Positions 43,792 to 64,000 are shown, counted from the first letter of the stretch. The stretch: DNA of 64,000 nucleotides from an uncultured Chloroflexia bacterium (GCA_963765765.1 CAVXYC010000019.1:346055-410054); one strand, 5' to 3'. Translations and numbers: made by a program. Notes: generated by a model from the letters alone, not told the origin.

Positions 43792-44763
43792 CTAGCTGAA
43801 GGTCGGCATGACCTGCGCTGCAAACTGCTCAAGCATCTCGCGCTTGAACGGACGCGGGGTCTGCAGGTTAAGGTGGGTGACGCCTATCTCGAGCCAGCGA
43901 CCCACGATGTCTATCAGCTCACTGGCGCCGCCCACGAAGCCCGCTTCTCGGGCGTGCTCTTCAGGGGAGCTGTACCCGGGCGGCACCTTATACGCCGGAT
44001 TCGCGGTGATGCGGGCAACGTATCGATCGAAAAAGCGCTGCGCCTCGGCCTTGTCTTCGGTGAGCAGAAATCCGCCTTGCTTGGAGATGCTCAGTGTTGC
44101 GAAGTCACGGCCCACTTCGCTGCAGATCTCGCGCATGCGCTCCTTGCGTGCTTCCACGACCTTGAGCGCGCCGAGGGAATTCCAGTTGTCCGCGTACTTT
44201 GCCGCCACGCGCATAGTGCCGGAGTGCATGCCGCCGATCATGATCGGCGGGTGGGGCTTTTGGACTGGCTTGGGGAAGAACGGCGCGTTATGCACCTGGT
44301 AGTACGTGCCCTCGAATGTGGTAGGGCCCTGGTTCGTCCAGAGGGCGATGATCAACGCCACCGCCTCGTCCAGACGACCGATCCGCTCCTCCACGGTGTC
44401 CGGATAGTAGTAACCGTTGATGTCGTACTCACGACGAGCACCGCCGGCGCCCATACACAGGTCCGCCCGACCGTTGGAGGCCAGATCGAGCGTGCAGTAC
44501 ATCATGGCTGTATTGACCGGATGTCGCAGCAGGTTGGCCTGAATCATGGTGCCCAGTCGGATGCGGGACGTTCGGCCCGACAGCGCAAGCAGCGTGGACG
44601 GCGCATCTAGGCGGTCTGGCTCACCACGGTCCACGATGTTGGTCAGGTGATCGGATGGGTAGAACCCGTGGAAACCTAAATCCTCGACAGCCGCGGCGAC
44701 TTCCAGGTGAGCAGGCCAACTAAGGCCGCCAGAGCCACCAACACTGAACGTCATCGCTGCCAT
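43792..44763 (-). CDS. LLM-class oxidoreductase, tandem paralog
   Basis: Same motifs and length; clearly similar to the 42688 gene. Confidence 0.92.
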   Translation of the reverse strand: MAAMTFSVGGSGGLSWPAHLEVAAAVEDLGFHGFYPSDHLTNIVDRGEPDRLDAPSTLLALSGRTSRIRLGTMIQANLLRHPVNTAMMYCTLDLASNGRADLCMGAGGARREYDINGYYYPDTVEERIGRLDEAVALIIALWTNQGPTTFEGTYYQVHNAPFFPKPVQKPHPPIMIGGMHSGTMRVAAKYADNWNSLGALKVVEARKERMREICSEVGRDFATLSISKQGGFLLTEDKAEAQRFFDRYVARITANPAYKVPPGYSSPEEHAREAGFVGGASELIDIVGRWLEIGVTHLNLQTPRPFKREMLEQFAAQVMPTFS

Positions 44764-44888: not shown

Positions 44889-45707
44889 ATGGCTTCAATC
44901 GTGGCTGGATTCGGCGTTCCGCACAATCCGGGTAACCCCGAAGCGGTGCTCAAGGGCGCTAAGGAGATTGGTGCGCTCTACGAGAAGGTGGCCGATGAGG
45001 CGCGCAGAGCTGACCTGGACGCGCTCATTGTCTTCAGCTCAGACCACCTGAACACATTCTTCCTCGACAATCTGCCAATCTTCAGCGTGGGCATCTCAGA
45101 CCATTCGGCGGGGCCGAACGACGATACCGAGATGCCGCGCTACTCGGTGCCAGTGCATGAAGCTTTGGCCGCTCACCTGCGCTCGCATGGCCTGAGTGAG
45201 AGCTTTGATCTGGCTGTCTCTCAGGAATTTGAGCTGGACCATTCTTTTATGGTGCCGCTTCATTTCATCACGCCCGGCGTGACCGTGCCGATTGTGCCGC
45301 TCTTCATCGGGGGAATCGTGGCGCCGCTACCGAGAGCGCAACGCTGCCTGGAGCTGGGGCAGATGGCGGCGCGCGCGGTGGAAGCCTGGCCTGAGAATCT
45401 ACGAGTTGGCGTGCTGGGAAGCGGCAGCTTCTCGTTGGACATCGGCGGCAACAAGGGTGCACGAGATACATTCAACGGATTTCCGGATCCAGAATGGATG
45501 CGCATAGTCATCGAGTGCCTGGACTCGGCCGATGTGGATCGACTGGTGGACGGGGCTACCGATGCGCAGCTCGACAAGGCCGGGAACGTGGCCGGCGAGA
45601 TCCTGAATTGGGTAGCCATGCTGGGCGCCACGGGTGGGCGCAAGCCGGCCGTGCTGGAGCCACTAAAGGGGCGCGGAGAAGCGTGGGCGGCGTGGCGATG
45701 CGAGTGA
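44889..45707 (+). CDS. Class III extradiol dioxygenase beta subunit (LigB-like)
   Basis: GVPH, SDHLNTFFLDNLP, LDHSF.VP, GNVAGEILNW. Confidence 0.88.
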   Translation: MASIVAGFGVPHNPGNPEAVLKGAKEIGALYEKVADEARRADLDALIVFSSDHLNTFFLDNLPIFSVGISDHSAGPNDDTEMPRYSVPVHEALAAHLRSHGLSESFDLAVSQEFELDHSFMVPLHFITPGVTVPIVPLFIGGIVAPLPRAQRCLELGQMAARAVEAWPENLRVGVLGSGSFSLDIGGNKGARDTFNGFPDPEWMRIVIECLDSADVDRLVDGATDAQLDKAGNVAGEILNWVAMLGATGGRKPAVLEPLKGRGEAWAAWRCE

Positions 45708-46088: not shown

Positions 46089-46916
46089 ATGGCGAGAGTT
46101 GTTGCCGGCTTTGGTGTGCCGCACAATCCGGCTGCGCCGGAGCTTGTGCGCAAAGGTGGGCCGGGCAGTGAGGTCAAGACACTCTATGGTGCTATCGAAG
46201 AACAGGTCCGTAGGGCTGAGCTTGACGCCCTGATCGTCTTCAGCTCAGATCATCTGAGCACGTTCTTCCTCGACAATCTGCCGATGTTCAGCGTTGGAGT
46301 GACCGCTTCTACTTCGGGGCCGAACGACGGTACGGTGATGCCACGTGTAACCGTACCGATCCGCGAGGACCTCGCTGCACACGTGCGAGAACAGGGCATT
46401 CAGGACGAGTTTGATCTGGGGGTCACCCAGGAGTTTGAGCTGGATCACTCGTTTCTCGTGCCGCTCCACTTTTTGACGCCGACAATGAACATCCCCATCG
46501 TCCCCATCTTCATCAGTGGCATCGTGAAGCCGCTGCCGCGGTCTCAGCGCTGTCACGCCCTGGGACAGTCCATCCGATCGGCCATTGAGCAATGGCCCGA
46601 GGACCTGCGCGTGGGGATTATCGGCTCGGGCAGCATCACGCTCGATATCGGTGGCGACAAGGGCAAGTCGGAAGGCATTCAGTCATATCCGGATCCGGAG
46701 TGGACCAAGGTGGTGACGGATTGCCTGGACAATGCCGATGTGGATCGCCTTGTCGCTGGAGCGACGGCAGCTCAATTAGACGCCGCCGGTAATGTTGCCG
46801 GGGAGCTTCTGAATTGGATTGCCATGCTAGGTGTCATTGGCGCCTGTAAGCCGGATGTGCTGGAGCTTCGCAACTATGGCGGCGCGGCGTTCGCATCCTG
46901 GCGCCTGGACGCGTAG
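46089..46916 (+). CDS. LigB-like extradiol dioxygenase, second copy
   Basis: Paralog of 44889 with the same metal-ligand motifs. Confidence 0.88.
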   Translation: MARVVAGFGVPHNPAAPELVRKGGPGSEVKTLYGAIEEQVRRAELDALIVFSSDHLSTFFLDNLPMFSVGVTASTSGPNDGTVMPRVTVPIREDLAAHVREQGIQDEFDLGVTQEFELDHSFLVPLHFLTPTMNIPIVPIFISGIVKPLPRSQRCHALGQSIRSAIEQWPEDLRVGIIGSGSITLDIGGDKGKSEGIQSYPDPEWTKVVTDCLDNADVDRLVAGATAAQLDAAGNVAGELLNWIAMLGVIGACKPDVLELRNYGGAAFASWRLDA

Positions 46917-49204: not shown

Positions 49205-49328
49205 CGAGCCTCTCGTAGCGCGGTGGTCTTGTGCCCCGCGCAATGGAGATTCCCGGGCCTGCGGACCCGTTCGAACACTGAGATCCTGCGGCGCGCGGTG
49301 CACAAGACAGCCGCACTACGAGGACTCG
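49205..49328. repeat. GTAG-type REP doublet (inverted)
   Basis: CGTAGCGCGGTGGTCTTGTGCCCCGCGC vs GCGCGGTGCACAAGACAGCCGCACTACG. Confidence 0.7.
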
Positions 49329-49445
49329 AGATCGTGGGCACACCGGGCGCTACACCTACGAGGTCTTAATTCGACGCCAGCCACTCTGCCGTGCTTACGC
49401 AGGTCGGCTCTGGGGCTGCGGCCTGTCTGATCGAGGGGAGGGTCA

Positions 49446-50491
49446 TTACGGCTCGGCCACCTTGCGCGCGAATAGCGCTCGCTGACGCAGCAGCCGCCGC
49501 GCATCTCTCCGGGCTCCTCACGCTGAGGTACCAGTCGACCGTGCGCTGCAGCCCGGCCTGAAACGTGACGTTCGGCTCCCAGCCCAGGAGCCTTCCGCGC
49601 GAGCGCATTGTCGGCCACGCGATTCAGCGGGCCGGTCGGCATCTCCGGACGGGTCACGATCTCAGCCTGGTGCCCGACCAGGGCCAGCACCATGGCTGGC
49701 GGCATCCCGAACGCGAATCCGCTCCATGGTCCCGAGATTGACGGCGGTGCCGTCGTCGATCGTCTCGGCGGCCCGTAGTGTTCCGGTGACGATGTCGTCC
49801 ACATAGGTCCAGTTTCGGATCTGCTCGCCCGTACCCCACACCTCGAACGGGTCCTGCCGGGCAACGGCCTTCGCGATCAGGGCGATGACCGCGTGATTCT
49901 CCTTCGCGCGCGGGCCGAAGACGGTGAAGTACCGGCAGGAGGCGGCCTTCAACCCATGCTCGCGATGGTACGCTCGCAGCGTCAGCTCGCCCATGAGCTT
50001 GGCCCAACCGTACAGGTTGTCGGCATCGTACGGCGGTCGTACCAGATCCTCCGTCAGGTAGAGCTCCTCGGCGGGGTCGGTCTGCAGGTAAGTTGGGGTA
50101 GACGCAGCCAGACGAAGCGTAGACGACCTTCTCGACGCCCGCTCTGAGTGCCTCGCGAAAGACGCAGACCGTCCAGCGCGAGATTGGCGGCCGGTCCTGC
50201 CTGGCAGGTGTCGACGTAGCCGCGGCCGCCGTGATCCGCTGCCAGGTGGAAGACGACCTCCATCCCCTCAACCGCCCGGCGAGCTACTCCAGGCTCATGC
50301 AGGTCGGCTTCGACAAGCTCGATGGCTCGGTCGGCAAGGTGTCCGCGAATATGCTCGATCGAGCCGCTGCTGAGGTCGTCGACGACGCGGACCGAGGTAC
50401 CGCGCTCGACGAGCGCGTCCACCAGATGCGAGCCGATGAAGGAGGCGCCGCCAGTGACCAGGACCCGTCGCGCCTTCCACACGTCATTCAT
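49446..50491 (-). CDS. NAD-dependent nucleotide-sugar epimerase/dehydratase, frameshifted
   Basis: VTGGASFIGSH, FHLAADHGGRGY, ASSGCVY, YGWAK, VWGTGEQIRNWTYVDD. Confidence 0.85.
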
Positions 50492-51469
50492 GGCTGGCCG
50501 CCGCGTCGCGCCTGCACCGCGCGGCACAATCGCGTGAACTGCGGCTCTTCCTGCCGCGCGAGCAGATCGAGAGAACGCAGGGCGGAACGGGCGGTCTTTC
50601 CAGGCCAGGTACGCCTCGTACTCCGCGTCGTGGTGCTGCAGGTGGAGGAGATACTCGGCCAGCTCTTGCGGCCCTTGAAGTCGGCGGTGTTGATGTAGCA
50701 GTGGTCGCCCGGCGCGAACGTCTCGACGTTCGGGGCGCCGAGGTAGACCGGGCACCGCGCCGGCCACGCAGCGGATCGAAGAACTTCTCGCTCACGTAGT
50801 CCTCGGTGATGGCGTTCTCGAACGCCAGGTCGAACTTGTAGTTGGCGATGATGTCCAGCTTCGATGGTCGCCACTGATCGTCGGGGATGTCACGGTTGCG
50901 GAGGATCTTGCCGTAGGCGTGAATGTCCAGGTAGCGCATCAGCTCCGTCGCGTACTCGATCCGGCCGCTCCGATTCATGCCGCTGGAGATGAAGAGCGTG
51001 ACCAGATTCTCGGCCGGCTCTTCGGTTTCGGCGGCTTCGCATCGCCGCGATGAGGTTCGCACCGTCGATGTAGTAGGACGTGTAGGCGACGATGCACGTC
51101 CGCATCGAGCCGGTAGGTCATCGTGAGGTCGAACTGGCGCATGTACGCCGGGTCGCGCAGCTGGGGGTAGTTCGCATCGCATTCGAGCGACCACGCCACC
51201 CAGAGCTGCCCCGCCGCTTCCGAGTGCGGCGGCTCTCGGAGCGAAGGGATGTGGAACACTACCGCCGCGCGCATCATGGTAGAAGCGCCGGTCGGTGGTG
51301 AGCCGGCAGCCGTCCGGGAGCGGCACCCCGTCGGTCTCGATCGGCCTGGCCCCACATCGTGTTGTAGAAGAGGATCAGCGTTTCCCTGGTCGCTCGGCTG
51401 CCGTCTCATGAAGGGGGCGGCCGCGACGCCCAGTCGGCGCTGCAGCGCTTCGAGCGTACGCTGCAGCAT
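50488..51469 (-). CDS. Alpha-1,3/4-fucosyltransferase (GT10), frameshifted
   Basis: AVVFH, WSLE, FDLTMTYRLDAD, YKFDLAFENAITEDYVSEKF, PVYLGAPN. Confidence 0.88.
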
Positions 51470-51545
51470 GACCGGTGAGTCCGGCTGCCATCTACCGCGT
51501 CCGCCCCGGTGCAGCCGCGCCTTCGGCGATGGGGCCGATCCGGTG

Positions 51546-53050
51546 TCAGCGCGGTCCCGCGAGCGGCCACAGCTCCACGGGTACTTGCTCGTGGTGAAGC
51601 CAGCGCTCCACGCCAGGCCCCGTCCGGGTCGCGCGTCAGCCTGCACGTGACGCCGCGACGCCCCTCGATGACGAGCGTGCGCGGCCGTCACGCTCCTCGT
51701 CGACCCGCCAGGTCTGCTCCCATTCCGTCCGACCATCGCCGATCCTGCCGCCGGGCAGGAGCTGCCAGCACGCGCTCGTCAGAGCCGAGCGCCGGTAGAG
51801 GAAATAGCGCGCGCGCAGCAGCTCAGCCTCGGCCTCCGGGGCCGCCGCCACGGCCTGCTCCATGTCCACCCGACCGTCCCATAGCTCCGCGGAGCTCGCG
51901 CAGCGCTTCCAGGCAGACGGCCTCGTGCACGAAGCCGGGCACGTGCAGGTTCTTCCCCCAGGCGGTCCATCTCGCCCCGGTGCGATGGTGGAAGATGACC
52001 CGCCCGTCGAAGTCGTGCTGCAGCAGGACATCGGCGAAGTTGGTGTCTCCCGGACTCACGAGACCGGTGATCCACTCGGGCCGCGTCGGCGGCATGCTGT
52101 ACGGCTGGTCCAGCATCCGCCACGCCATGTGGAACGTCTCCTTGTCGCCGTTGACGTGGCGATAGTAGAAGTCGGAGTGCTCGTTCAGGTGCAGGGTGAG
52201 CTGGAGGGCGTCCCAGCAGCGCTCCTTGTCCAGCGACGATCTGCCCGCTCTCGAACTCCGGCTCGTCGCGGTACTCCACGCGGCAGATGTCCCAGATCTC
52301 GCGCTCACGTCCCAGGTTGCCGAGGTCAGGCCAGAAGACGGCGCCCGTCGCTCGATACTCCGGCCAGGTCAGCAGCTCGGCCGGGTCGATCAGCGGCACG
52401 TTGTCGGCGTCCAGGAGGATCACCTCCTTGAACGGGCTGTGGACGATCGCGTACGGCTTGCACTCCCAGCCCCCGGCGATGCGCATCGGATGGCGACGCT
52501 GGACCTCCTGCGCGTCGACGCACTCGACGTCGAATCGCCGTAGCAGCTCGATCATCCTCGGCGACATCTCATGCGGACCGAGGTACCAGACCTGGATCGG
52601 GCAGGCGGCAGCTCGAGGACCCGCCGCAGCACGGTCAGGCAGACCCAGGCGTTCGTGAAATGCTCAGGCCCACCGGCCACGATGACGATGCCCGCTCCCG
52701 CGAATCGGTCAGCGGGATACGGCGGCGCTGGATGCTCTTGCCTCGTCCTGCAGTCGATGATAGTGGGCGTACTGCTGGGCACGAACCACGTCGGCACGCG
52801 ACGGCGCGGATACACGGTCCCGCTGCCTGCGCAACCGAGCCGGGCTGGCTGGGTCCAGGGCTTGAGAACGCGCCTGTATCCCTCCAGGACGCGGGCCCGG
52901 TGCTCGAGCCGCTCGATGTCCGCTCGGACGCTGCTCTTGTTCGAGCAGCACCCGCCCGTGCTGCCGGAGCAGCCGATCGAGGAGCCAACCCTGTCCCGCG
53001 ACCAGGAGCCCCAGGGCAACAGACGCGCGCAGGACTCGGGACAGCCTCAT
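51546..53050 (-). CDS. GT71 (Mnn2/Mnn5-like alpha-mannosyltransferase) with N-terminal membrane anchor, frameshifted
   Basis: GIVIVAGG, LPIQVWY, KPYAIVHSPFKEVILLDADN, GAVFWPD, EFESGQ, GDKETF. Confidence 0.85.
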
Positions 53051-54313
53051 GGCCCACAACTGCGCACCGGGCGCTGCCGAGCGATCGCGGGACAGGAACC
53101 AGGAGGCGGCGAGCCGCACGGACTCGTCGCCGTCGCGGCAGAGCCGTCTCAGCACGAGCCTGACTCTGGGGATCTGAGCGAATGTCGGTCGTCGGCCTGG
53201 GCCAGGACCCGCGCGACGTAGGCGCGGTCAAAGGCCCTTGGGCTGCGCGACTGCCCGATCACTCTCTGCGACCGTCTCGTCCAGCGATCGTGGTCCGGTC
53301 ACACGCCAGCCCGCGATCTCCGGCGGCTGCCTCTTCACCGCCAGGCAATTGATGACGCTCTGGGGCTCGAGCTCGCCAGGCTGCACCGGGATGAGTCGCC
53401 CCGGCTCGACGCTGTAGCTGGTATATCCGTACCGATCGAGCGCGGCCTGGAGATCAGCCGCGCGTATCGCCGAAGAACTGCAGCGTGTGCGTGTTCGACT
53501 CGTAGAGCACGATCGGCGCGTTGGGGCCGGATAGCAGTCCGGCCATACCGCGAATGGCGGCCAGCTCGGCGCCTTCGACGTCCAGCTTCACGGCGTCCAC
53601 CCGGTCCCATCCCAGCCGGCCGAGCAGCCCGTCCACCGTCAGGGCGGGGACGGCGATCGGGTGCCAGCGTCCGCGCCTGGATCATCGCGGGCGAGTCTAT
53701 GACAGATCGATTCGCGATGGTGCCCCACGGGCCGTTGGCGAGGAACTCGATGCTCCCCTCGAGATCGGTGACCGCGCCGTGCACGACGTGCAGCGAGTCG
53801 AAGCGGTTCCGGGCGGCACTCGCCTCCAGAAGGCGGACATGGCGCGGCGCGGCCTCGACACATAGCGACACGGCACCCGAGCGCGGCGGCGGCGAGCGCA
53901 AACGTGCCGACGTGGCCGCCAAGGTCCAGAACCGTGTCGCCCGGCCGCAGAGCGTCGAGCAGCACGTAGTAATCGTCGAGGAACCAGGACTCGCCCGTCA
54001 CGATGGCGTCGGTGATGGGATCCATCCACCGTGGGTCGAGGGCGACCTCGAACGTGATGCCGTTCCTGAGGGTTACCGTCCGAAACACCAGCGCGTCTTC
54101 TGGCAGTGCCTTCCGGCACAGGACGAGGATCAAGCACCCCGGTCCCCAGGCTAGATCGTTCAGTGCGCGGTCTACACGAGCCAGGCGGCTGTGGAGGTCA
54201 GCGTAGACTTGCACAGTTCCGTCGTGCCGGCGGAGCAGCCAGTACGCCAGCCCAGACTGGACGATCGCCAGTGCCCACGGAGCGACGCGGATCGCCGTGG
54301 CGGCTAGTCCCAT
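53047..54313 (-). CDS. FkbM-family methyltransferase with N-terminal TM, frameshifted
   Basis: LDLGGHVGTF, VEAAP, TVDGL, VKLDVEGAELAAIRG. Confidence 0.85.
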
Positions 54314-55142
54314 CGTCTCTCACCTCCGCGATCCATTGATCTCGCGGTCACGTCACCTGGGCCCTGAGGCTGGGCAGGCTCCTCTTGAGTCTTACTGCTC
54401 AGCAGGTCGCGTTGAAGCTCGCGATAGAACTCCAGCGCCCACGCCGGGAGGAGCGCCTCCGGACCACCCTCGAAAAGGGGGCGACGGGCCAGGTAGTCCT
54501 CGAGCGCCTCGCCGTTGCCCTGGTGCGTCCAGGTGTGTCCGCGGTCGCGGCTGGCGCCCCGATGACGCACCGCCAGGAAGAGCTCCGGGGCGCGCACGGG
54601 CAGCACCGTCGCCGCCGCGTCTCAGCTGGTCGAGCAGATACCAGACGTCCTCGTCGAACCGTACGGGCCGGAATGGCCGCGCCTCCCAGTCCTCGCGGGC
54701 AAAGAGGAGCGTCGCGCCGGGGGCGTTTACGTCGATCGACCGGCGAACCTCCCAGCGGGCCACGTCGAAAAACAGGAATGGCATCAAGAACGCGAGCGTC
54801 GGCCGGCAGACCTGCTGGCGGTTCGCCACCACCGAGTCGATCATCGTTTCCAGGAAGCGCGGCGCGTACCAGTCGTCGTCGTCCATCTTCTGGCAGAGCG
54901 GGCCGCGCGCCGATCTCCACGCCCCGATTGAGCTTGGTGCCGAGCGGGGTTCCGGGCGCCAGACGAACGAGGCGGCCACCGAGTGCCGCGACGGTCGGCT
55001 CGTCGACTGGGAACTCGTCACCGTCGTCGACGACGATGAGCTCACGGTGCGGGTAGGTCTGGTGCGCATAGCATCTGAGCGCGACCGCCAGGAAACGCGG
55101 CCGATCTCGGGTGGTGAGGATGACGGACACCGGCGGAGCCAC
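54304..55142 (-). CDS. GT2 glycosyltransferase, frameshifted
   Basis: VSVILTTRDR, QTYPHRELIVVDDG, LGTKLN, MDDDDWY, ED, RHRG..HTW. Confidence 0.85.
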
Positions 55143-55260
55143 CCAAAGCGTCGGTCACCAGTAGTGCTCGATAGGCGAAGTGATCGAGCGCCGTCCCGGC
55201 ACCTTCGCATCGCCGGGGCGGCGCTCGTGTCACTTCAGCCAAGGATCAGAGCTTACCGCG

Positions 55261-55571
55261 CTAGTTGATACTGTTAAGGCCGACGCAAATGACTTCGCCG
55301 CTATTCATACCGATGGTGTGCCGCCCTGCGCCGATGCAACTCGCGCAGTCTGAGACACACTGTCCGAATTCCCGTCCCTGAAGACGATCTCACGAACTGG
55401 TGGCAGACACTCCTGACAGATTGCTGGTGTGATCTGCGCGTCGGCGCTTCGGCCGGTGAAGACACTCGCCAACGCGGCACCCGCCGCCCCCGCGGCGAAT
55501 CGCTTCAGCGCCGAGCGCCGCGACACGCCACTGGCCAGGGCCTTGGCCAGCTCGTCAAACTGCTTGCCCAT
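55261..55571 (-). CDS. Tat-signal Cys-rich small secreted peptide, frameshifts ~55400
   Basis: GAGGAG RBS; MGKQFDELAKALASGVSRRSALK...ADA, then ICQE.CHQF...GQCVSDCASC...VICVGLNSIN*. Confidence 0.7.
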
Positions 55572-55649
55572 TAATCAGCTCCTCTCTCTCACTGGCTGAC
55601 ACGTCGAGCTTCGCCATCCGAAGGCTCCGAACCCGCGCAGCATAGCACC

Positions 55650-56809
55650 ACGTCCACGACGCCAGTATGGAGACAGGCATCACGCTACGTCTCGCCGCGG
55701 GAATTCGCGGACCGGTCACCGTCGGGCCGGCCGCGAGGGCCAGGATGGCGTCAACCCCAATGGCGACGTCCGCCTCGATCACGCCCTCGCGTCGATCATG
55801 AAGGCGATCGGCGTAGCGAACATGCCGTACTCGCGCGAGATCTCCCAGCGACGCTGGAGCACGACCGGGAACGTCAGCCCATGCTCGGCGACCTTCGTCC
55901 CGATTCGCCTCCGGGTCGCCACGGCTCACCATCAGGACCTGGAAGTCCGTGGCGCGGCGATGGACCTGCCTCGAGCCTCGGGCGCAAGCACGTCGCACGG
56001 CCCGCAGGCCGGATCGGAGAACACCAGCAGCACCCGGCGTCCGCGGAACTCGTCGAGCGCCAATTCTCCGCCGTCGACCCGCGGCAGGCGAAATGTCGGC
56101 GCCACCGTTCCGGCTTCCAGACCGTTGCGCAGGATCTGGCTGGAAGCCAGCGAACCAAATCGCCCGCGCGAAAATCCCGTCCGCGGAGCTGCGCCGCCAT
56201 CACGTCCCGCCCATTGCCGGCCGTGCGTTCGCCAAATGCAGCACGTCCTGGCGCCCCGACCGCGAGCGGGCTTGCTGTCTGCCCCTGCTCGTCGATGAGG
56301 TAGCCCATCGGCGTACCCTCCACCCGGTACATCTGTGCGACCTCGCCGCCCTCTTGCAGCAGGACCGGCACTCGGACGCCGTGACTGCTCCATGAGTCGC
56401 TCGGTTTTCATCGGCGGCACCGGTCGAGACGATCAGGGGAACGGGCGGCCGTCGTCCGGCCGCGGATCGAGCCGGGCCAGGTCAGGCAGCATCTGGCGAC
56501 AGAAGCTGCAGCCCGGGTCGAAGAAGATCAACAGCACGCGCTGACCCCGCCACTGCGAGAGGGTCACCGTGTCGCCGGATCAGGGTCGGCAGGGCGAAAT
56601 CGTGAGCGACGGAGCCAACGGGCAGCCCGCTGGGTAGCTCGTCATCATCCACCGGTCTCCCGGTCAGCTCGGCGAGCTGTCGCCTCCAGTGCCTCGATGC
56701 GCAAGAGCAGCCGACCGTTCTGGATCAGGAGCTGGTACCCGAACCAGCCTCCGAGCCCCACGACGCCCAGCGACGACGCGGCACGAAGCGCGCTGATGAT
56801 CTTCGACAC
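55650..56809 (-). CDS. Membrane-anchored tandem thioredoxin-like (TlpA/MauD-like) protein, frameshifted, end approximate
   Basis: TM + QLLIQNGRLL; GLPVGS.A.DF.LP...FFDPGCSFC...GTP; GLEAGT.APTF.LP...FSDPACGPC...ATP. Confidence 0.8.
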
Positions 56810-57019
56810 GATGAACCATCCCGGTGCGGGTGGCGCATGCCGCGCAGCGGACGCCCACGTGTGACGTCCGCGGCGCGGACAGCCGCGAATCCAGCGCTAG
56901 TATACGGGGCGCCGACGGTCCCAGCCACGCGATGCTCGGGCGGCGGGAGTAACGGACCAGTGCGTGCTCGCGAGCTGTCTGGAGCGCTACCATCGCATCC
57001 AGCGATCGATAGGCGGGCG

Positions 57020-60000
57020 CCGATGCCAGGGGGCGCTCTACGTCCATGCAACGGCACATCGACTGTGCCTGAGGGCGACCCATCGCCGATTCAGCTACCG
57101 CTCCGAGCGAGCGCGGCAGAGCCGAGCCAGCAGCACGAACGCTCACCTCGCGCACAATCGCGCGTCCTGGCAGCATCCAGAGCTGATCGGCGCGGCGGAC
57201 ATCGCAGACTGCCGGCAAGCGCTCGATGCTGTCGAGGACTTCCCGACCGTGTGCCAGGACGACGGCTCGGCACTGCTCTCCGCCGTCGATCTACTGGCGT
57301 CCCGACCTCGTCGATGACGATGTCGTCGCCGGACCTGGAAGCGCTCCTCAGCCGAGCGTCGCTGTCGAGTACGACGTACGAGCATGCGGCGGAGGTGATG
57401 ACCTATCTCCTCGCTACTCCCGCCCGCGACCGGGCCGTGGCGGCGATGCTGCAGCCTGCTGGCTCGATCCGACCTTGCCGAGTCCGCCTACGATGCGCTG
57501 GTGGATGCCCTCGCGTTCGCCGCGTCGTGGGCCACTCAGCTCACTCGACCTCGAAGCGCTGGTCGGGGTCGTCGAGCATGCGCACCTGGAGCGTCACCGT
57601 ACCGCCTGCTCCGTACGGTCATCGAGCCGGTGATCTTCGCGGACCTGAGCGCTGTATCAGCTCCGCTCCTGGAGCGCGTGCTCCAGACTTCCGCGACCAT
57701 CCTGACTTGAAGTATCTGCTCTACTATCTCTCGGGGCGTCAGACGTCCGCCACTTGCTCGGCAGCGGGCAGCCTCGGCGATACGTGGGCGGTTTCCGCTG
57801 CACGGATCGATCGCCGAGACGCTCGGGAGCGGAGCGTCACCGTCCTGGTCGTCCAGAACATCGCCGACAGGCAGGGCGACGAGATCATCCGCGTGGTGCC
57901 GTTGCTCGAGTCGCTCCTTGACTTCAACCCGCAGCTCGAGGTCGTGCTGATCACGAACCGCGAGTACCTGTACGGGCATTCGCGCCTGACGCTCGTGCCG
58001 ATCGACGACGAGGTCGGCATCGAGGCCGTGCTGCGCGACCGATTCGACGTCGTGATCGACTTCTACGAACCGATGGTCCCGCAGGTGAACCACCGACGAC
58101 CTCGAGCATCAGGTGCAGGCGCACGTTCGTGTCCACCCCCCGTGCCTGCACATCACGAGCTCGAGAAAGGCTGGAACCATTTCGTCTACCAGCGGGTGGA
58201 CGTCGCAGGGGCGCGCCTATGCCGAGGACCTCGGGCTCGACGACAGCGGGTCAACAACGTCTACGAGACCACGTTCCGCCTGATCGCGGAGCTCGGGCTG
58301 CCGCTGCGCCTCGGCGAGGAGCCACCGGATGCGGACTCGGTCATGGCCAGCCTCCCGTTGCCTCGAAGCCGAGGCGGCCTGGTCCGCGTTGCTGGCGCAG
58401 AATGTGCAGGGTCGTCCCGGTTGCGCTGGTCTGTCCGTTCGGGGGTACCGAGCCGCTCAAAGGGTACGTGGAGCGCCAGGCCCATGGCCTGGCGGCCCGG
58501 CTTCGCGAGCTGATCGACGAAGGGTTCTACGTCGTTCTGCTGCCGAACGGGATGCCGTGGGGATCGGCCCGGCACGCGCGCGACGTCGTCGAGCTGTTTG
58601 CCGACCTTCCGAGCAGACGCATCGTCGTCGTGGCGCCGGACCCCGCCGACGGGGTCGGGGAGGTGACCTACCGGCACGCGGGCACGCACACCGTTCCGTA
58701 CGCCAGCTACCAGATGCGCCTCGTCACCTACTTCGTTCGCTTCGCGGACCTGATCGTCACGGTCGAAGGCTGGATGGTCCACGCCGCATCTTGCCTGGGC
58801 AAGCGCTACCGCATCCTGATGCTGCCGTACTCCCACCCGTCCGAGTGGCATCCGTACGGCCGAACGCTCCAGCAAGCTCTCGGTCGATTCCCGCCTCTCC
58901 TCCCGCCGCTGGAGGATGCCGGTCTCCCGCCGCTCCCGGAGCAGCCGCGCAAGTTCGTGCTGATCTCACTTCTCCGGAGGCTCGGCGGGAGCTGGCGATG
59001 CGCAAGCGGTTCCGCTGCTGCGCCTGGCGCTGCAGAGCGAGGATCGGGACGTGCGCCTGGCGGCGGCCTCGGCGCTTGGGCGCTTCTCGCGGACCTGAGA
59101 TCGACACCGCCTTGCGCGACCTGCTTGCCGATCCGGCGTACCGCGTGCGCGCTGCGGCGGCCGGAGCGCTTGCTCGATCGGTGGGCGGAGCCAGCCCCGC
59201 GGCGAGACCAGCCTTCCACGCGAGCAGCTCGAGGCTCATCGGCGGATCGGGGAGGACGCACGGAGTCTGGGCTGGCATCCTGCGCCTCGGCGAGAGCGCC
59301 CGCCCGGCGCTCGAGATCGCGCTGCATGACGACGACCCGGTCATCCGACGCGAAGCGGCGAATCGCAATTCGGGCCCTGGATCATCGTTCCGCCATAACC
59401 TCGTCAGCGGCGGCATCCGCGGAGTCACGGGGTGTTCGCGCGATGCTACGCGCGTGCTCCGTGCTGGAGAAGACGGCTCGCACCGGTGCACACGGCTTCC
59501 TGCGCGGCCTCGGCCGCCGTCCGTCCCGTCCCCGGTCGCCCCCCGAGCCAACAACCAACGGTGCTCATCCTGACTCCAGTCAAGGACGCCGCCGACTGCC
59601 TGGACGACTACTTTCGACTGTCTTCGCCGACTGACGTACCCGCATCACTTGATCTCGCTCGGCTTCCTCGAGAGCGACAGCTCAGACACGACCTTCCGCG
59701 ACCTCCAGCGCCACGCACGCGCGAGCCGCGGAGCGAGTTCCGGCGGGTCGAGGTGTGGAAGAAGGACTTCGGCTACCGCATCCCGCCGGGTGTGCCGCGC
59801 TGGGCGCCCGAGATCCAGGTGGAGCGGCGCAGGGTCTGGCGCAAGAGCCGCAACCACCTGCTCTTCCGGGCGCTCGACGACGAAGCGTGGGTGCTGTGGC
59901 TGGACGTGGACGTCGTCGAGTACCCGCCCGATCTGATCGAGCGGCTGCTGGGCACCGGGAAGGATATCGTCCAGCCCCACTGCGTGCTCGACTACGGCGG

Positions 60001-60359
60001 TCCGACCTTCGATCTGAATGGGTGGCGCGACCACGGGCGGCTGCACCTCGACGACTTGCGCGGCGAAGGCGAGCTGGTCGAGCTCGACGCGGTTGGCGGG
60101 ACGGTGCTGCTGGTGCGGGCGGATGTGCACCGCGAGGGGCTGGTCTATCCTCCGTTCCTGTACGGAGCGGCCAACCCGCGCGTCCGAACGGGCCGCGCGC
60201 AGTATGTTCGAGGGCAGCATTGCGGGCGAGATCGAGACGGAAGGCCTCGGCATCATGGCGCGCGACATGGGCTATCGCTGCTGGGGGATGCCACACTTCG
60301 AGGTCATCCACCGACGGAAAGTGACCGACCAGCGCGAAGGGGCGGCGCGGCTCCCATGA
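57020..60359 (+). CDS. Multidomain glycosyltransferase: GT9-like + HEAT repeats + GT62 (Anp1/Mnn9-like); heavily frameshifted, start uncertain
   Basis: QGDEIIRVVPLL, ADLIVTVEGWMVHAASCLGK; EDRDVRLAAASAL, DPAYRVRAAAA; VLILTPVKD, ISLGFLESDS, SRNHLL, WLDVDV, FDLNGW, LDAVGG, VHREG, IETEG. Confidence 0.7.
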
Positions 60360-61599
60360 ACACGCCACGACCTCGGCTCCTGTATCTCAGCCCCGTCGTT
60401 CCCGCCACTACCGGAAACGGCCTGGCCATGCGGGCCGGCATGGTGCTTCGGCTTCTGGCGAGCCAGTACCGAGTCTCGCTGCTGGTCGTCCGCCTCTACC
60501 CGCCGTTCCAGGGCCCTATTCCCGCGGCCATCGCCGACGTCTGCGACGAAGCCGTCACGATACCGGCCGAACCGTGTGAGCCGACCGGCGGCGTCGTGGC
60601 CTTCACCGCCTGCGGCGCCTGCTCGGCCGCCTCGCGCTGGGCCACGCTCACCGCGCCGACGGCAGGATAGTGGCGGCGGCCCGGGATTTCCGCGGCCGCC
60701 GGTTCGACGTGATCCACGTCTTTCGGCTGGCGATGCTGCCCTACGCTCGGCCGTACCTCGATCGGGCAGCATCGCCAGCCGAGCGGCACCTGGACCTCGA
60801 CGATGTCGAGTCGATCGACCAGACGGCGCGTGGCGGAGCTGTACCGCGCCAACGGCCACGCGACGATAGCTGACTCCGAGGCGGGGGCTGCCCGTCGTGC
60901 CGCAACCATCGAGGACGAGGTGATGCGCGATTTCGATCGAGTGTACGTGTGCTCGGAAGGCGATCGAGCCACACTCGCCCGGCCTGGCGGTGCACGAGTC
61001 TGCGTATTGCCAAACGCACTGCCACTGCCCGCCCCGCTACCACAACCCCGGGAGGGCGAGCCGTTCACGTTCCTGTTCATCGGGACGCTCGGCTACTATC
61101 CGAACGAGGACGCGATTCTGTACTTCTGCACACATGTCCTCCCACTCATTCGGGAGGGTGCCACGCGGAACATTCGCGTGATCATCGCCGGCTCCGGCGA
61201 CGCACCCGCGCTTCGACAGCTCATGGGGTCGCCAGGCGTGCAGCTGATCGGCCCGGTGCCGGACGTGGCAACCGCGTATCGTGAGGCTCGACGCGGTGGT
61301 CGTACCCATCCGAGCCGGCGGTGGAACGCGTATCAAGGTGCTGGAGGCGTTCAGCTATCGACGACCCGTCGTCGCAACGTCGCTTGGTATTGAAGGAATC
61401 GCCGCTGAGCCGGACCGGGCATTTCCTGCGAGGCGACACGCCGACCGAGCTCGCTGAGCAATGCATCCGATTGCTGACCGATCCACGACTCGCCGAACGA
61501 CTCACGAATGCGGCGTATGACCTCTTTTATCGTGACTACACAATGGAGGCCGCGGCACGCAGACTCGCCGCCTGCGACGCTGAGACCGTAGGGCCGTGA
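60356..61599 (+). CDS. Glycosyltransferase family 4, frameshifted
   Basis: GNGLAMR, LDLDDVES, FIGTLGYYPNEDA, GGGTRIKVLEA, GIEG. Confidence 0.85.
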
Positions 61600-61742
61600 A
61601 TGATTCAAGCTCCGAGCCATAGTGCTTGTCGACAGACTTGTGGATCAGTTGGATACAGGATGGAGCGCAACGACACACAGCCGCGTCTCGCGCGAGACTG
61701 CGACCGAAGCGCAGGCAGCCGGGCCGGAGCCCTGGCGCCACG

Positions 61743-62939
61743 ATGAGTGCGAGTCCCGCGTTGTCCGCCCTGCGCGTTCGCGGTCCTTTTCTGGGCTCCA
61801 GCGGCTATGACCATCATGTCCGCGAATTCGTTCGGGAGCTACACCGCCAGGGCGTCGCTATTGAGCTGATTGACTTGCCGGAGTGGGGCCCCAGCCGACT
61901 TCCCGACGAACTCCGGGACCGCTGGTTCGAGTCTCTCAATGAGCCCGTGGCCGCATCAGTGAGTTTGCACTTCTGCATGCCCCACCAGGTAAGGCCGTTC
62001 CCGAACACCGCGACCGTGAACTACACGATGTTCGAAGCGACCCGCATCCCGGTTATCTGGGCGGCATACAGTCGTCAGTGTGATCTGGTTGTCGTACCGA
62101 CCGAGTCCTCCCGCGATGCCTGGCTCGCCGCCGGCGTGCGGTCGGAACGACTGCGCCTCTGCCCGCTGGGCATCGCCCCGGATATGTTCGGCAACGAGGT
62201 GGAACCACTCGCCCTACTTGACGCCGTCGGGGAGCCGCTCAACCGCTATCGGGTGCGCTTCCTCAACGTCTCCGAGCTCGGGCCGCGCAAGAATCTCACG
62301 GGGCTATTGCGGGTCTGGCTGCTAGCCACCACGCGTGCCGACGACGCCGTGCTGATCATCAAACTGAGCCCCTTCTCGGCCGATCGCCTGGCCCTATTCC
62401 AGGCGGAGCTCGACGAGCTTCAACGAAGTCTCGGAAAACGGCTTTCGGAGGCAGCGCCCGTCCATTTTCTCAAGGAACTGTATGCGGATCGGCAGATGCC
62501 CCGCCTCTACGCCGCGGCCACGCACTACATCAGCCTCTCCCACGGGGAAGGCTGGGACCAGGCGATGATGGAGGCAGCAGCCTCCGACCTGCGGCTGATC
62601 GCACCTGCGCATAGCGCCTACCTGACCTATCTCGATGGGACGGTTGCTCGGCTGGTGGCGAGCCAGGAGGTTCCCGCCAGCTTCATCGACGTGGACGGCC
62701 TCGAGACGCTGTTCACGGGCGCCAGTTGGTGGGCGCCAGACGAACTCGAGGCAATTGCCGCCGTGCGCTCCGCCATTAACGGCCGCGACCAGCCGGCGGC
62801 CTCCGCCCGCGATCGGGTACGACGCCAATTCACCTGGGAGCAGGCCACGCGGCGGCTGATCTCCATCCTGGCTGAAGTCAGCACGCCTATGAGGCGGCCA
62901 TGGCTGTGGAAAGGGCTGCCGTGGAACAAGCGCTCGTGA
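61743..62939 (+). CDS. Glycosyltransferase family 4-like
   Basis: SGYDHHVR, YTMFEAT, PRKNL, LSHGEGWDQAMMEA, FTWE. Confidence 0.88.
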   Translation: MSASPALSALRVRGPFLGSSGYDHHVREFVRELHRQGVAIELIDLPEWGPSRLPDELRDRWFESLNEPVAASVSLHFCMPHQVRPFPNTATVNYTMFEATRIPVIWAAYSRQCDLVVVPTESSRDAWLAAGVRSERLRLCPLGIAPDMFGNEVEPLALLDAVGEPLNRYRVRFLNVSELGPRKNLTGLLRVWLLATTRADDAVLIIKLSPFSADRLALFQAELDELQRSLGKRLSEAAPVHFLKELYADRQMPRLYAAATHYISLSHGEGWDQAMMEAAASDLRLIAPAHSAYLTYLDGTVARLVASQEVPASFIDVDGLETLFTGASWWAPDELEAIAAVRSAINGRDQPAASARDRVRRQFTWEQATRRLISILAEVSTPMRRPWLWKGLPWNKRS

Positions 62940-63215: not shown

Positions 63216-63965
63216 TTAATTGACGGTCGCGCGTGGCGGCTCTATCATCGCTCGGGTTTGCGCTGGATGAACCGCTGAATCGAGCGCTCGATTGGGGAGC
63301 CTGCTTATGACGCGCATTATTTCCTGGCTAGGAACATCCGCCGCTTTGACGATGATGATTGTACTCACGGCATGCTCGCCAGCGGCGGCGCCGAGCCCCA
63401 CGGCGGCTCCCGCCAAACCCGCTGCCGCCACGTCACCCGTGACCGCCGCATCTCCAGCGTCATCTCCTGGTGCCGCGGCTGCATCTCCCGTGGCTTCGCC
63501 TGCCGCCGCCGCGTCGGCTCCAGCCGCGGCCGCGGCGCCAAAGCCGGTTTCGAAGCTTGCAGATTTCCCGACGAAGCCTATTGAGATAATTTAATTGACG
63601 GTCGCGCGTGGCGGCTCTATCATCGCTCGGGTTTGCGCTGGATGAACCGCTGAATCGAGCGCTCGATTGGGGATCCTGCTTATGACGCGCATTATTTCCT
63701 GGCTAGGAACATCCGCCGCTTTGACGGTGGCGGTTGTACTGACAGCATGCTCCCCAGCGGCAACGCCGAGCCCCACTGCGGCGCCCGCCAAACCCGCCGC
63801 CACCACTTCACCTGTGACCGCCGCATCCCCAGCGTCATCGCCAGGTGCCGCGGTTGCATCACCGGGGCCTTCGCCTGCAGCCGGCGCGTCGGCTCCAGCC
63901 GCGGCCGCGGCGCCAAAGCCAGTTTCGAAGCTCGCAGATTTCCCGACGAAGCCTATTGAGATCAT
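63216..63965 (+). repeat. 375-bp diverged direct tandem duplication (upstream region plus 5' part of tctC)
   Basis: Copies start TTAATTGACGGTCGCGCG at 63216 and 63591. Confidence 0.92.
63307..63594 (+). pseudogene. Truncated tctC-like lipoprotein N-terminus
   Basis: Lipobox LTAC, Ala/Pro linker, DFPTKPIEII then stop at the duplication junction. Confidence 0.7.
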
Positions 63966-64000
63966 CGTTCCGTTTGGTCCCGGCGGCGGATTTGATGCCC
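63682..64000 (+). CDS. tctC: Tripartite tricarboxylate transporter substrate-binding lipoprotein, 3'-partial
   Basis: FPTKPIEIIVPFGPGGGFD Bug/TctC N-terminal motif. Confidence 0.85.
   Translation, partial: MTRIISWLGTSAALTVAVVLTACSPAATPSPTAAPAKPAATTSPVTAASPASSPGAAVASPGPSPAAGASAPAAAAAPKPVSKLADFPTKPIEIIVPFGPGGGFDA

Follow-up and report, generated by a model that had tools for sequence, protein, structure and literature searches.

A shared N-terminal module on a redoxin, an FkbM-family methyltransferase and a GT71 glycosyltransferase encoded in one Chloroflexia gene cluster

In bacterial VKOR-thioredoxin proteins a four-helix, quinone-linked oxidase is followed by an extra helix, a linker and a thioredoxin-fold domain. 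Type II glycosyltransferases of the Golgi, among them the fungal GT71 and GT62 enzymes, are built from a cytoplasmic tail, a membrane span and a stem, and shared stems have been proposed to co-localise the enzymes of a pathway. For MauE, passages of a preprint state that it can replace DsbB, that it possesses four membrane helices with a CXC site in a loop predicted to be periplasmic, and that fusions to thioredoxin-superfamily domains make up 8.2% of the MauE entries (bioRxiv 10.64898/2026.03.05.709764). Here we describe a module that links such fusions to glycosylation enzymes. It occupies the N-termini of three unrelated enzymes, a redoxin, an FkbM-family methyltransferase and a GT71 glycosyltransferase, which are encoded on the minus strand of a 64,000-nucleotide stretch of the genome of an uncultured Chloroflexia bacterium (G000:C19:346055-410054, hereafter the window), whose end is the contig end. 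An earlier, sequence-only reading of the window had proposed a common anchor for these enzymes, and our profile comparisons confirm, at the level of sequence, that the three N-termini are one homologous module.

The redoxin gene begins with GTG at 56809-56807 (minus strand; translation MSKIISALRAASSLGVVGLGGWFGYQLLIQNGRLLLRIEALE) and the GT71 gene with ATG at 53050-53048 (minus strand; MRLSRVLRASVALGLLVAGQGWLLDRLLRQHGRVLLEQEQ), in agreement with the starts and sequences given in the sequence-only reading. In both proteins the module, of which residues 1-40 lie at 56690..56809 (redoxin, minus strand) and at 52931..53050 (GT71, minus strand, recognised by HMM and profile-profile match), has the same layout, in which a hydrophobic helix (PW...G-W) leads into R-Q-[NH]-G-R-x-L-L and a heptad-like helix comes last. 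In the redoxin the hydrophobic helix with its G-W is followed by IQNGRLLLRIEA, and a one-base frameshift near 56690 puts the rest of the coil into another frame; the intact redoxin orthologues P0001-P0006 read ...QNGRLLLRIEALERRLAELTG. The heptad-like continuation of GT71, ADIERLEHRARVLEGY, likewise stands in another frame, down to about 52870. The six-frame translation of the genome contains four occurrences of the pattern Q[NH]GR.LL, two of which are the N-termini of the redoxin and of GT71.

A hidden Markov model (HMM) of ten redoxin-type modules (the redoxins P0001-P0006, the MauE fusion P0007 and the fusions L006, L008 and L009), with no GT71 sequence among them, was run against 130,564 six-frame pieces of the genome in a search space of 6.5 Mb. 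It recovered the redoxin at E = 2.1e-19 and the GT71 N-terminus at E = 0.0011, with the next match at 1.2. The reverse model, made from the N-termini of 18 GT71 orthologues with the window row excluded, recovered GT71 at 3.6e-13 and the redoxin at 4.7e-7, and its next match had an E of 0.24. When the two profiles were aligned with hhalign, the probability was 97.2 (P 3.6e-11) over 47 columns. The segments are short and of biased composition, and single-sequence searches are weak: word-index searches with the redoxin N-terminus, which are too insensitive, returned just close redoxin orthologues and one MauE fusion, and the GT71 N-terminus found no usable match in a protein atlas. Such features could raise the suspicion of a chance or compositional resemblance, or of a mis-called start, but this explanation has a negligible likelihood and is refuted by the tests run. 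In 200 shuffles, in which columns were permuted separately within the hydrophobic and the coil segment, no score reached the real one of 46.7 (mean of the shuffles 9.7, maximum 16.6), so that the shared motif is significant against composition-preserving shuffled segments, the comparison on which the sequence-only reading had made its claim depend. Moreover, the matches are unique in the genome, the module is in frame in 18 orthologues, and an exhaustive search (see below) returns almost only the same three enzyme families. Within the window, the redoxin and GT71 modules have a moderate similarity of about 40%. Recent gene conversion among the neighbours was considered as well and rejected: the DNA of the three modules has a mean column identity of 62% and lacks extended stretches of identity. 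The module is covered by none of the Pfam or NCBIfam models and is now defined as a searchable unit of about 45 residues.

The FkbM gene (53081..54313, minus strand) starts with ATG at 54313, its translation reading MGLAATAIRVAPWALAIVQSGLAYWLLRRHDG..., and its copy of the module extends over 54170..54313 as RVAPWALAIVQSGLAYWLLRRHDG...LHSRLARVDRAL. The redoxin-type HMM misses this N-terminus (it is not among 61 matches at E<=100) and the GT71-type HMM gives it an E of 3.2. An HMM of nine FkbM-type N-termini from other sources, by contrast, has the three enzymes of the window as its top three matches in the genome, FkbM at 2.3e-9, GT71 at 2.5e-5 and the redoxin at 7.3e-4, with the next match at 0.12. 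Cross-matches in tblastn point the same way: residues 12-55 of the GT71 orthologue P0009 match the FkbM N-terminus at 54280-54149 (E 0.002), and an FkbM orthologue matches the GT71 N-terminus (E 0.009). By these comparisons the FkbM copy is real, yet diverged, which gives substance to the "weaker version" of the motif that had been suspected on FkbM. The catalytic part matches FkbM (PF05050) with 30.7 bits in the window piece (cut-off 22.7); the 417-aa orthologue P0155 reaches 62.6 bits in Pfam, and in NCBIfam (TIGR01444), where the cut-off is 37.7, it reaches 82.1 bits. FkbM proteins carrying the module were found in the window, in the exhaustive search (P0147, P0151, P0152, P0155 and P0185, accompanied by short FkbM-type fragments), and in L078 and L131. 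In one further locus (L046:6637-8631, the same as L124) FkbM lacks the module and is fused to GT2 in a single open reading frame (ORF) of 665 aa. That FkbM has either the module or a fused GT2 suggests that the two are alternative means of holding FkbM near its partners.

In GT71 the module is an addition. The window gene (51561..53050, minus strand; Mannosyl_trans3, PF11051) scores 58.8 bits in its window piece against a cut-off of 22, possesses a DxD motif (LLDADNV), and has an orthologue in L046 that scores 117 bits; its identity is 91% to P0011 (over a 122-residue core piece) and 92% to P0009 (with a 123-residue query). A search with an intact GT71 catalytic core returned 785 homologues, and among the best 120 of these the redoxin-derived HMM matches 20 (E<0.01), always within residues 2-55. 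The module-bearing proteins are the closest relatives, most of them about 480-545 aa long and beginning ...LLPWALVAVQGWLVDRLLRQHGRxLLEQERL, whereas distant homologues of about 410 aa start straight at the catalytic domain; the module is therefore an add-on of one GT71 clade. Module and GT71 domain share one ORF in 18 intact orthologues (about 480-545 aa) and in one of 404 aa, and hence the GT71 N-terminus is not a separate ORF, a possibility that the sequence-only reading had named as counting against its claim. The 19-row GT71 alignment has no conserved RR or A-x-A site, and neither the GT71 nor the FkbM N-terminus qualifies as a twin-arginine or Sec signal peptide.

The origin of the module is indicated by its distribution, which we followed with a GT71-only profile (A1) and a redoxin-type profile (A2). 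Searched over 1,835,955,588 representative proteins, A1 has 76 matches at E<=0.001. Local HMMs of the domain bodies assign 34 of them to redoxins, five to FkbM and three to GT71; the remaining 34 are unclassified, mostly fragments of less than 110 aa, and include P0198, an evident repeat false positive. Pfam, applied to 75 of the 76, finds thioredoxin-fold domains (AhpC-TSA, Redoxin, Thioredoxin) in 28, FkbM in one and an odd AAA-lid/HTH fragment in one. A profile made from glycosyltransferases only thus finds mainly redoxins, and GT71 and FkbM are the sole non-redoxin families among the carriers found. Over 401 genomes of the phylum, A2 has matches in 30. We scanned 26 ORFs from L012-L040, the weakest three loci (L036-L038) being omitted as apparent out-of-frame matches. 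In 13 of these ORFs a MauE domain (PF07291) is followed by the module and one to three redoxin domains; nine are single-anchor redoxins, one has no family, and three are weak matches to unrelated membrane proteins (an AI-2E transporter, a cobalt ABC permease and Yip1). The module of the MauE-redoxin fusions is their fifth membrane helix plus linker; P0007 reads ...DGWFLIHLLRQNGRLLLRIETLERRLA, and the 13 fusion ORFs have the same. A likeness to the last helix of MauE-like proteins, noted in the sequence-only reading, is thereby borne out.

As for the copy on GT71, a Chloroflexi genome (G415, the same as G088) encodes double redoxins with GT71-type N-termini (LPWGL...RQHGRLLLAQDELRERL), which A1 matches at 9.9e-16 and 1.6e-11; redoxins of this type are a plausible source, judged by sequence likeness. 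The GT71-type profile found no further GT71 carrier in 40 relatives of the window genome and no match in a genome of the same genus (G001, 92% complete). The island is therefore patchy and was probably acquired. The genome has a MauE gene of its own (224 aa), located together with a double redoxin (340 aa) at C20:602630-604149 (L041). The two are read in different frames, with an overlap at a short repeat (…ARNAARGTRNAARG…) at the place of the RQQGR linker of the fusions, and they are probably a MauE-redoxin fusion split by a frameshift.

The synteny of the carriers is equally informative. The order redoxin, GT2, FkbM, GT71, GT10 recurs in Chloroflexota: a 36.7-kb locus of an uncultured Chloroflexi bacterium (L046/L124) has a redoxin with the module, the GT2::FkbM fusion, a GT71 with the module, an unknown gene, GT10, another unknown gene and a second redoxin with the module. 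L044 has FkbM, a module-bearing GT71 and GT10. In L073/L074, L127 and L131 a redoxin with the module is accompanied by a small ORF, by GT4-like and GT2 genes, by Anp1 and by a GT71 that lacks the module; L127 and L131 come from Acidobacteriaceae and Acidobacteriota, which places a related cluster in a second phylum. FkbM bears the module in L131 and L078. Of the 80 genome loci around GT71 homologues, four (L124, L126, L127 and L131) have a redoxin with the module no more than 10 kb away, and these four include the first-, third-, fourth- and eighth-best GT71 matches. Wherever context is visible, module-bearing GT71 and FkbM genes sit in this same conserved cluster. The module does link the redoxin to the glycosylation genes, as the sequence-only reading had argued, because the non-redoxin carriers are the GT71 and FkbM of one cluster.

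We estimate a probability of roughly 60% that the module, which would stem from redoxins, serves as a portable membrane tether and stalk and places neighbouring enzymes at the membrane. It would be a portable N-terminal helix of about 45-60 residues with a hydrophobic half (often PW...G-x-W), the boundary R-Q-[N/H]-G-R-x-L-L and an amphipathic half, followed by a disordered linker of 10-40 residues and the catalytic domain. Its home is a family of thiol-redoxins, where in the MauE fusions it joins the DsbB-like MauE bundle to the thioredoxin-fold domains, and where stand-alone double redoxins have retained it as their sole anchor. From there it was probably copied onto FkbM and one GT71 clade inside one conserved glycosylation cluster. 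Its most likely role is to keep the catalytic domain, on a flexible stalk, close to the cytoplasmic membrane. Boundary motif and coil might in addition self-associate or bind a common partner, so that pathway neighbours would work at the same place.

Structure predictions are consistent with such an anatomy. With moderate confidence, AlphaFold2 models the redoxin P0002 (12-row alignment, mean predicted local distance difference test, pLDDT, of 77) with one helix at residues 2-48 and a low-confidence linker at 47-56, and GT71 P0009 (18 rows, mean pLDDT 66) with one helix at 3-61, running unbroken into the coil, and a low-confidence linker at 60-84. The hydrophobic moment is 0.10-0.19 in the first half and 0.35-0.44 in the second, in which, read from the sequences, Leu/Ile/Val follow a 3-4 spacing over about two to three heptads (LLLRIEALERRLAEL). 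Mean Kyte-Doolittle values over 19 residues are 1.89 in redoxins, 1.77 in FkbM and 1.21 in GT71. Homology, distribution, synteny and the predicted helix with its linker are what the analysis shows; membrane insertion and orientation are inferred, and so would be any oligomerisation or docking.

The strict conservation of the motif across contexts, and the fact that FkbM has either the module or a fusion, speak for more than a passive anchor. One may therefore ask whether the module is a docking device, by which the three copies pair via helix and coil and build one complex of redoxin, methyltransferase and glycosyltransferase. GT71 or FkbM carriers adjoin a module-bearing redoxin wherever there is enough flank (the window, L046/L124 and L131), the boundary motif is kept across carriers to a degree that would be needless for a passive anchor (W, G and L are invariant in A1; Q, G, R, L and E in A2), and the GT2-FkbM fusion stands in for the module in one genome (L046). 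In addition, the GT71 helix contains a Gln and the redoxin helix Gly-rich small-residue motifs; Gln and small-residue motifs in membrane helices favour helix pairing. On the other hand, the carriers would need opposite compartments if the redoxin is periplasmic, and the modules of the window are just moderately similar, with no sign of recent co-conversion in their DNA. A complex prediction with the N-termini of the redoxin (62 residues, 12 rows) and GT71 (62 residues, 18 rows) gave a score of 0.00 and a mark of 0.32, had no controls and is uninformative either way. We regard docking by mutual pairing as rather unlikely, and the assembly of redoxin, FkbM and GT71 into one membrane complex, as put forward in the sequence-only reading, is unproven.

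For the tether and stalk of redoxin origin, several observations have to be set on the negative side. MauE is absent from the window and from 160 GT71 loci, whose flanks were covered for up to 10 kb. The same absence lowers a variant in which the helix is the MauE-binding fifth helix and the single-pass carriers are recruited in trans to a separate MauE bundle. This variant could draw on the module standing directly after the MauE domain in 13 of the 26 ORFs, on the same form of the module being kept in unfused redoxins and on the genome's own MauE and double-redoxin locus; it offers no rationale for bringing a Leloir glycosyltransferase or an S-adenosylmethionine (SAM) dependent methyltransferase to a quinone-linked thiol oxidase, and we consider it very unlikely. 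Furthermore, the hydrophobic half of GT71 is marginal for a membrane span (19-residue Kyte-Doolittle values ranging over 0.78-1.70, mean Eisenberg H 0.38, with the conserved Gln inside), and the copies in the window are broken genes, whose function in this organism is uncertain.

The most serious objection is a conflict of topology. GT71 and FkbM need a guanosine diphosphate (GDP) sugar and SAM, both of which are cytoplasmic. In the MauE-redoxin fusions (L013-L034 and P0007), which have five helices, the C-flank of the module lies on the side of the CXC loop in 14/14 cases; given the periplasmic location predicted for this loop in the passages of the preprint, the redoxin domains would therefore be periplasmic. 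One way out is that the carriers differ in orientation, and the coils could then not join them in one complex; the other is an error in one of the locations assumed. In the 14 fusions Lys and Arg number 115 on the CXC/redoxin side and 47 on the other, an excess that by the positive-inside rule favours a cytoplasmic location of the former side, contrary to what those preprint passages predict for other MauE proteins. In GT71, the N-flank is basic, without acidic residues, and its charge of +2.6 against +0.8 in the near-neutral C-flank would place the catalytic domain outside.

On another reading the module would be an uncleaved export signal-anchor, and GT71 and FkbM would be type II proteins whose catalytic domains lie beyond the cytoplasm, like those of Golgi enzymes. 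The flanking charges of GT71 would agree with this, as would the homology to an anchor with a C-side that, going by the preprint passages, is periplasmic, and so would the enzyme families of the cluster, GT71, Anp1/GT62 and GT10, which are those of eukaryotic Golgi type II enzymes. However, a hydrophobic N-terminus or anchor is lacking in the Anp1, GT10 and GT2 proteins of the cluster, the helix is weakly hydrophobic, and we know of no GDP-sugars or SAM outside the bacterial cytoplasm. An outward-facing type II arrangement therefore appears highly improbable to us.

The conflict can have several explanations. Firstly, the module may be inverted, or merely peripheral, in the sugar enzymes, which would rule out pairing of the coils; their weaker hydrophobicity fits such an opposite or peripheral placement. 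Secondly, the redoxin side may be cytoplasmic, contrary to the prediction in the preprint passages. Thirdly, it is possible that the sugar enzymes face outward.

Directly after the redoxin comes a small ORF (55305..55571, minus strand) that encodes 88 aa and has a twin-arginine-like signal (SGVSRRSALKRF). Homologues follow the redoxin in L073 (1309-1665), L127 (5476-5889) and L131 (3369-3668). The start pattern of these ORFs is M[SG]K..D.LA..LA.G.SRR.A..F; in the three homologues the mature part is Cys-rich, and two of them have N-x-S/T sites. The ORF of the window has just two Cys and may be frameshifted. It may be a candidate substrate of the redoxin or of the glycosyltransferases, and thus directs attention to a small Cys-rich secreted protein. 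One can go further and imagine the module as a docking code for a membrane-bound maturation line, in which redoxin, methyltransferase and mannosyltransferase, brought to one membrane face by the shared helix, would process this protein and couple disulfide formation with glycan tailoring before or during export. We hold this to be quite unlikely; if true, it would be a bacterial counterpart of the Golgi enzyme complexes, and it would imply either that the redoxin family faces the cytoplasm or that Leloir-type enzymes act outside.

The redoxin gene itself (55723..56809, minus strand) encodes the module and two TlpA/AhpC-like thioredoxin-fold domains, assigned by Pfam on its pieces, with the CxxC motifs DPGCSFC and DPACGPC; orthologues have 358-423 aa. 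It belongs to the Redoxin/AhpC-TSA thioredoxin-fold family (PF08534, PF00578): the pieces of the fragmented window gene score 24.5 bits against a cut-off of 26, and the redoxin of L046 scores 104.5 bits. Matches of the redoxin domains to the MauD and ResA models are weak and all below the curated cut-offs; the cut-off of the MauD model (TIGR02661), 188.6 bits, is not reached by P0002 (73.1) or P0007 (77.7).

The minus-strand genes follow the order redoxin, small ORF, GT2, FkbM, GT71, GT10, epimerase/dehydratase. The GT2 glycosyltransferase (54399..55154, minus strand; PF00535 on a piece) is broken and has no module, and it is its L046 orthologue that is fused to FkbM. The GT10 fucosyltransferase and the NAD-dependent epimerase/dehydratase (49662..51736, minus strand; Pfam) are both broken, and genome-wide scans with the three module HMMs found no module on either. 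A divergent arm (56837..62939, plus strand; Pfam and ORF list) contains ORFs without Pfam match (56837-59634), Anp1/GT62 and two GT4-type genes, none of which carries the module. Taken together with its relatives, the cluster mixes GT71, Anp1/GT62 and GT10 (GT8 in L078) with GT2, GT4, FkbM and an epimerase. GT71, Anp1/GT62, GT10 and GT8 are typical of the eukaryotic Golgi, where the first three are type II enzymes. No integral membrane protein was identified among the cluster ORFs scanned (window 49662-62939; L073; L078), which is more in keeping with direct protein glycosylation than with a lipid-linked polysaccharide pathway.

Across about 49-62 kb (49300-61600) the G+C content reaches 0.66-0.69, compared with about 0.59-0.61 upstream. 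Frame chains against intact orthologues reveal at least eight frame switches in the redoxin, at least six in GT71 and at least three in FkbM, while ORFs of the flanks are uninterrupted (e.g. 43792-44763, 44889-45707, 46089-46916 and 61626-62939). The switches could be assembly indel errors or recent decay. In-frame identity to the intact orthologues is 80% in the redoxin (against P0001), 82% in GT71 and 62% in FkbM; with such high identity, and with indels only, consensus errors fit better than long decay. The search for public sequencing runs covering 51700-57000 listed none, and the median longest open frame per 4 kb fails to separate the broken island from its flanks, a measure made uninformative by the high G+C. 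FkbM ends (…ESVRLAASWFLSRDR…) in the same open frame in which GT71 has its ATG, and no stop intervenes (52712-53227, minus strand). Read-through, fusion and an indel artefact are the possible causes; FkbM and GT71 are separate genes in L044 and L046.

A few further observations concern single sequences. In P0144 an FkbM-type module is joined to the C-terminus of a sigma-54 activator, and in L073 (7372-8748) a sigma-54 response regulator directly follows GT71; the P0144 chimera is probably a gene-calling or frameshift artefact, though it hints at a regulator of the cluster. P0186 and P0142 have a clear redoxin-type module followed by sequence without known family, which in P0186 includes a second helix and Gly/Ser-rich repeats after the start of a redoxin domain; both are possibly further carriers, or chimeras. 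At the contig end of the window, two tandem ORFs on the plus strand (63292-63594 and 63667-63999) have nearly identical Ala/Pro-rich N-terminal parts, beginning M G S/I L L M T R I I S W L G T S A A L T…, and may be a duplication or an assembly repeat.

Anchors are usually taken as interchangeable greasy helices, but this module has a strict sequence signature. It ties a thiol-redox enzyme to a glycosylation pathway of the families GT71, GT62 and GT10, and the question of its topology bears on where MauE-type redox systems act. Should the module be merely a tether, it would still be a tidy case of domain shuffling within a cluster.

Among known systems, the extra helix of the VKOR-thioredoxin proteins and the tail, span and stem of the Golgi enzymes are nearest to the module in architecture. 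The VKOR helix belongs to a different protein family; a recurrence of that helix on unrelated enzymes is not known to us. The Golgi enzymes share with the carriers an N-terminal helix, a flexible stem, a catalytic domain and the enzyme families GT71, Anp1/GT62 and GT10. Their stems, however, have no sequence relation to the module and no strict motif, whereas the module of the window has a strict motif and a catalytic domain that is probably cytoplasmic. In MauD (TIGR02661) and TlpA/ResA, too, one N-terminal anchor precedes a thioredoxin-fold domain; the alignment to the MauD model begins only at its position 43-44, so that the MauD N-terminus differs from the module and was ruled out as its source. 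Literature searches on MauE-type proteins and on bacterial GT71 and FkbM returned no description of the shared module, and the preprint passages on MauE describe neither the helix nor the motif, though figures S2 and S4 of that preprint could show the fusion linker (bioRxiv 10.64898/2026.03.05.709764). The fusions of MauE (PF07291) with thioredoxin-fold domains are nearest in sequence and agree with the window in direct sequence homology and in the place of the module directly before the redoxin domain. They differ in that the module follows the MauE bundle, whereas in the window it stands alone at the N-terminus. In the fusions it precedes a redoxin, but GT71 (PF11051) and FkbM (PF05050) carry it before non-redox domains, which are new contexts for this module; of the three enzymes only the redoxin is a member of the redoxin family.

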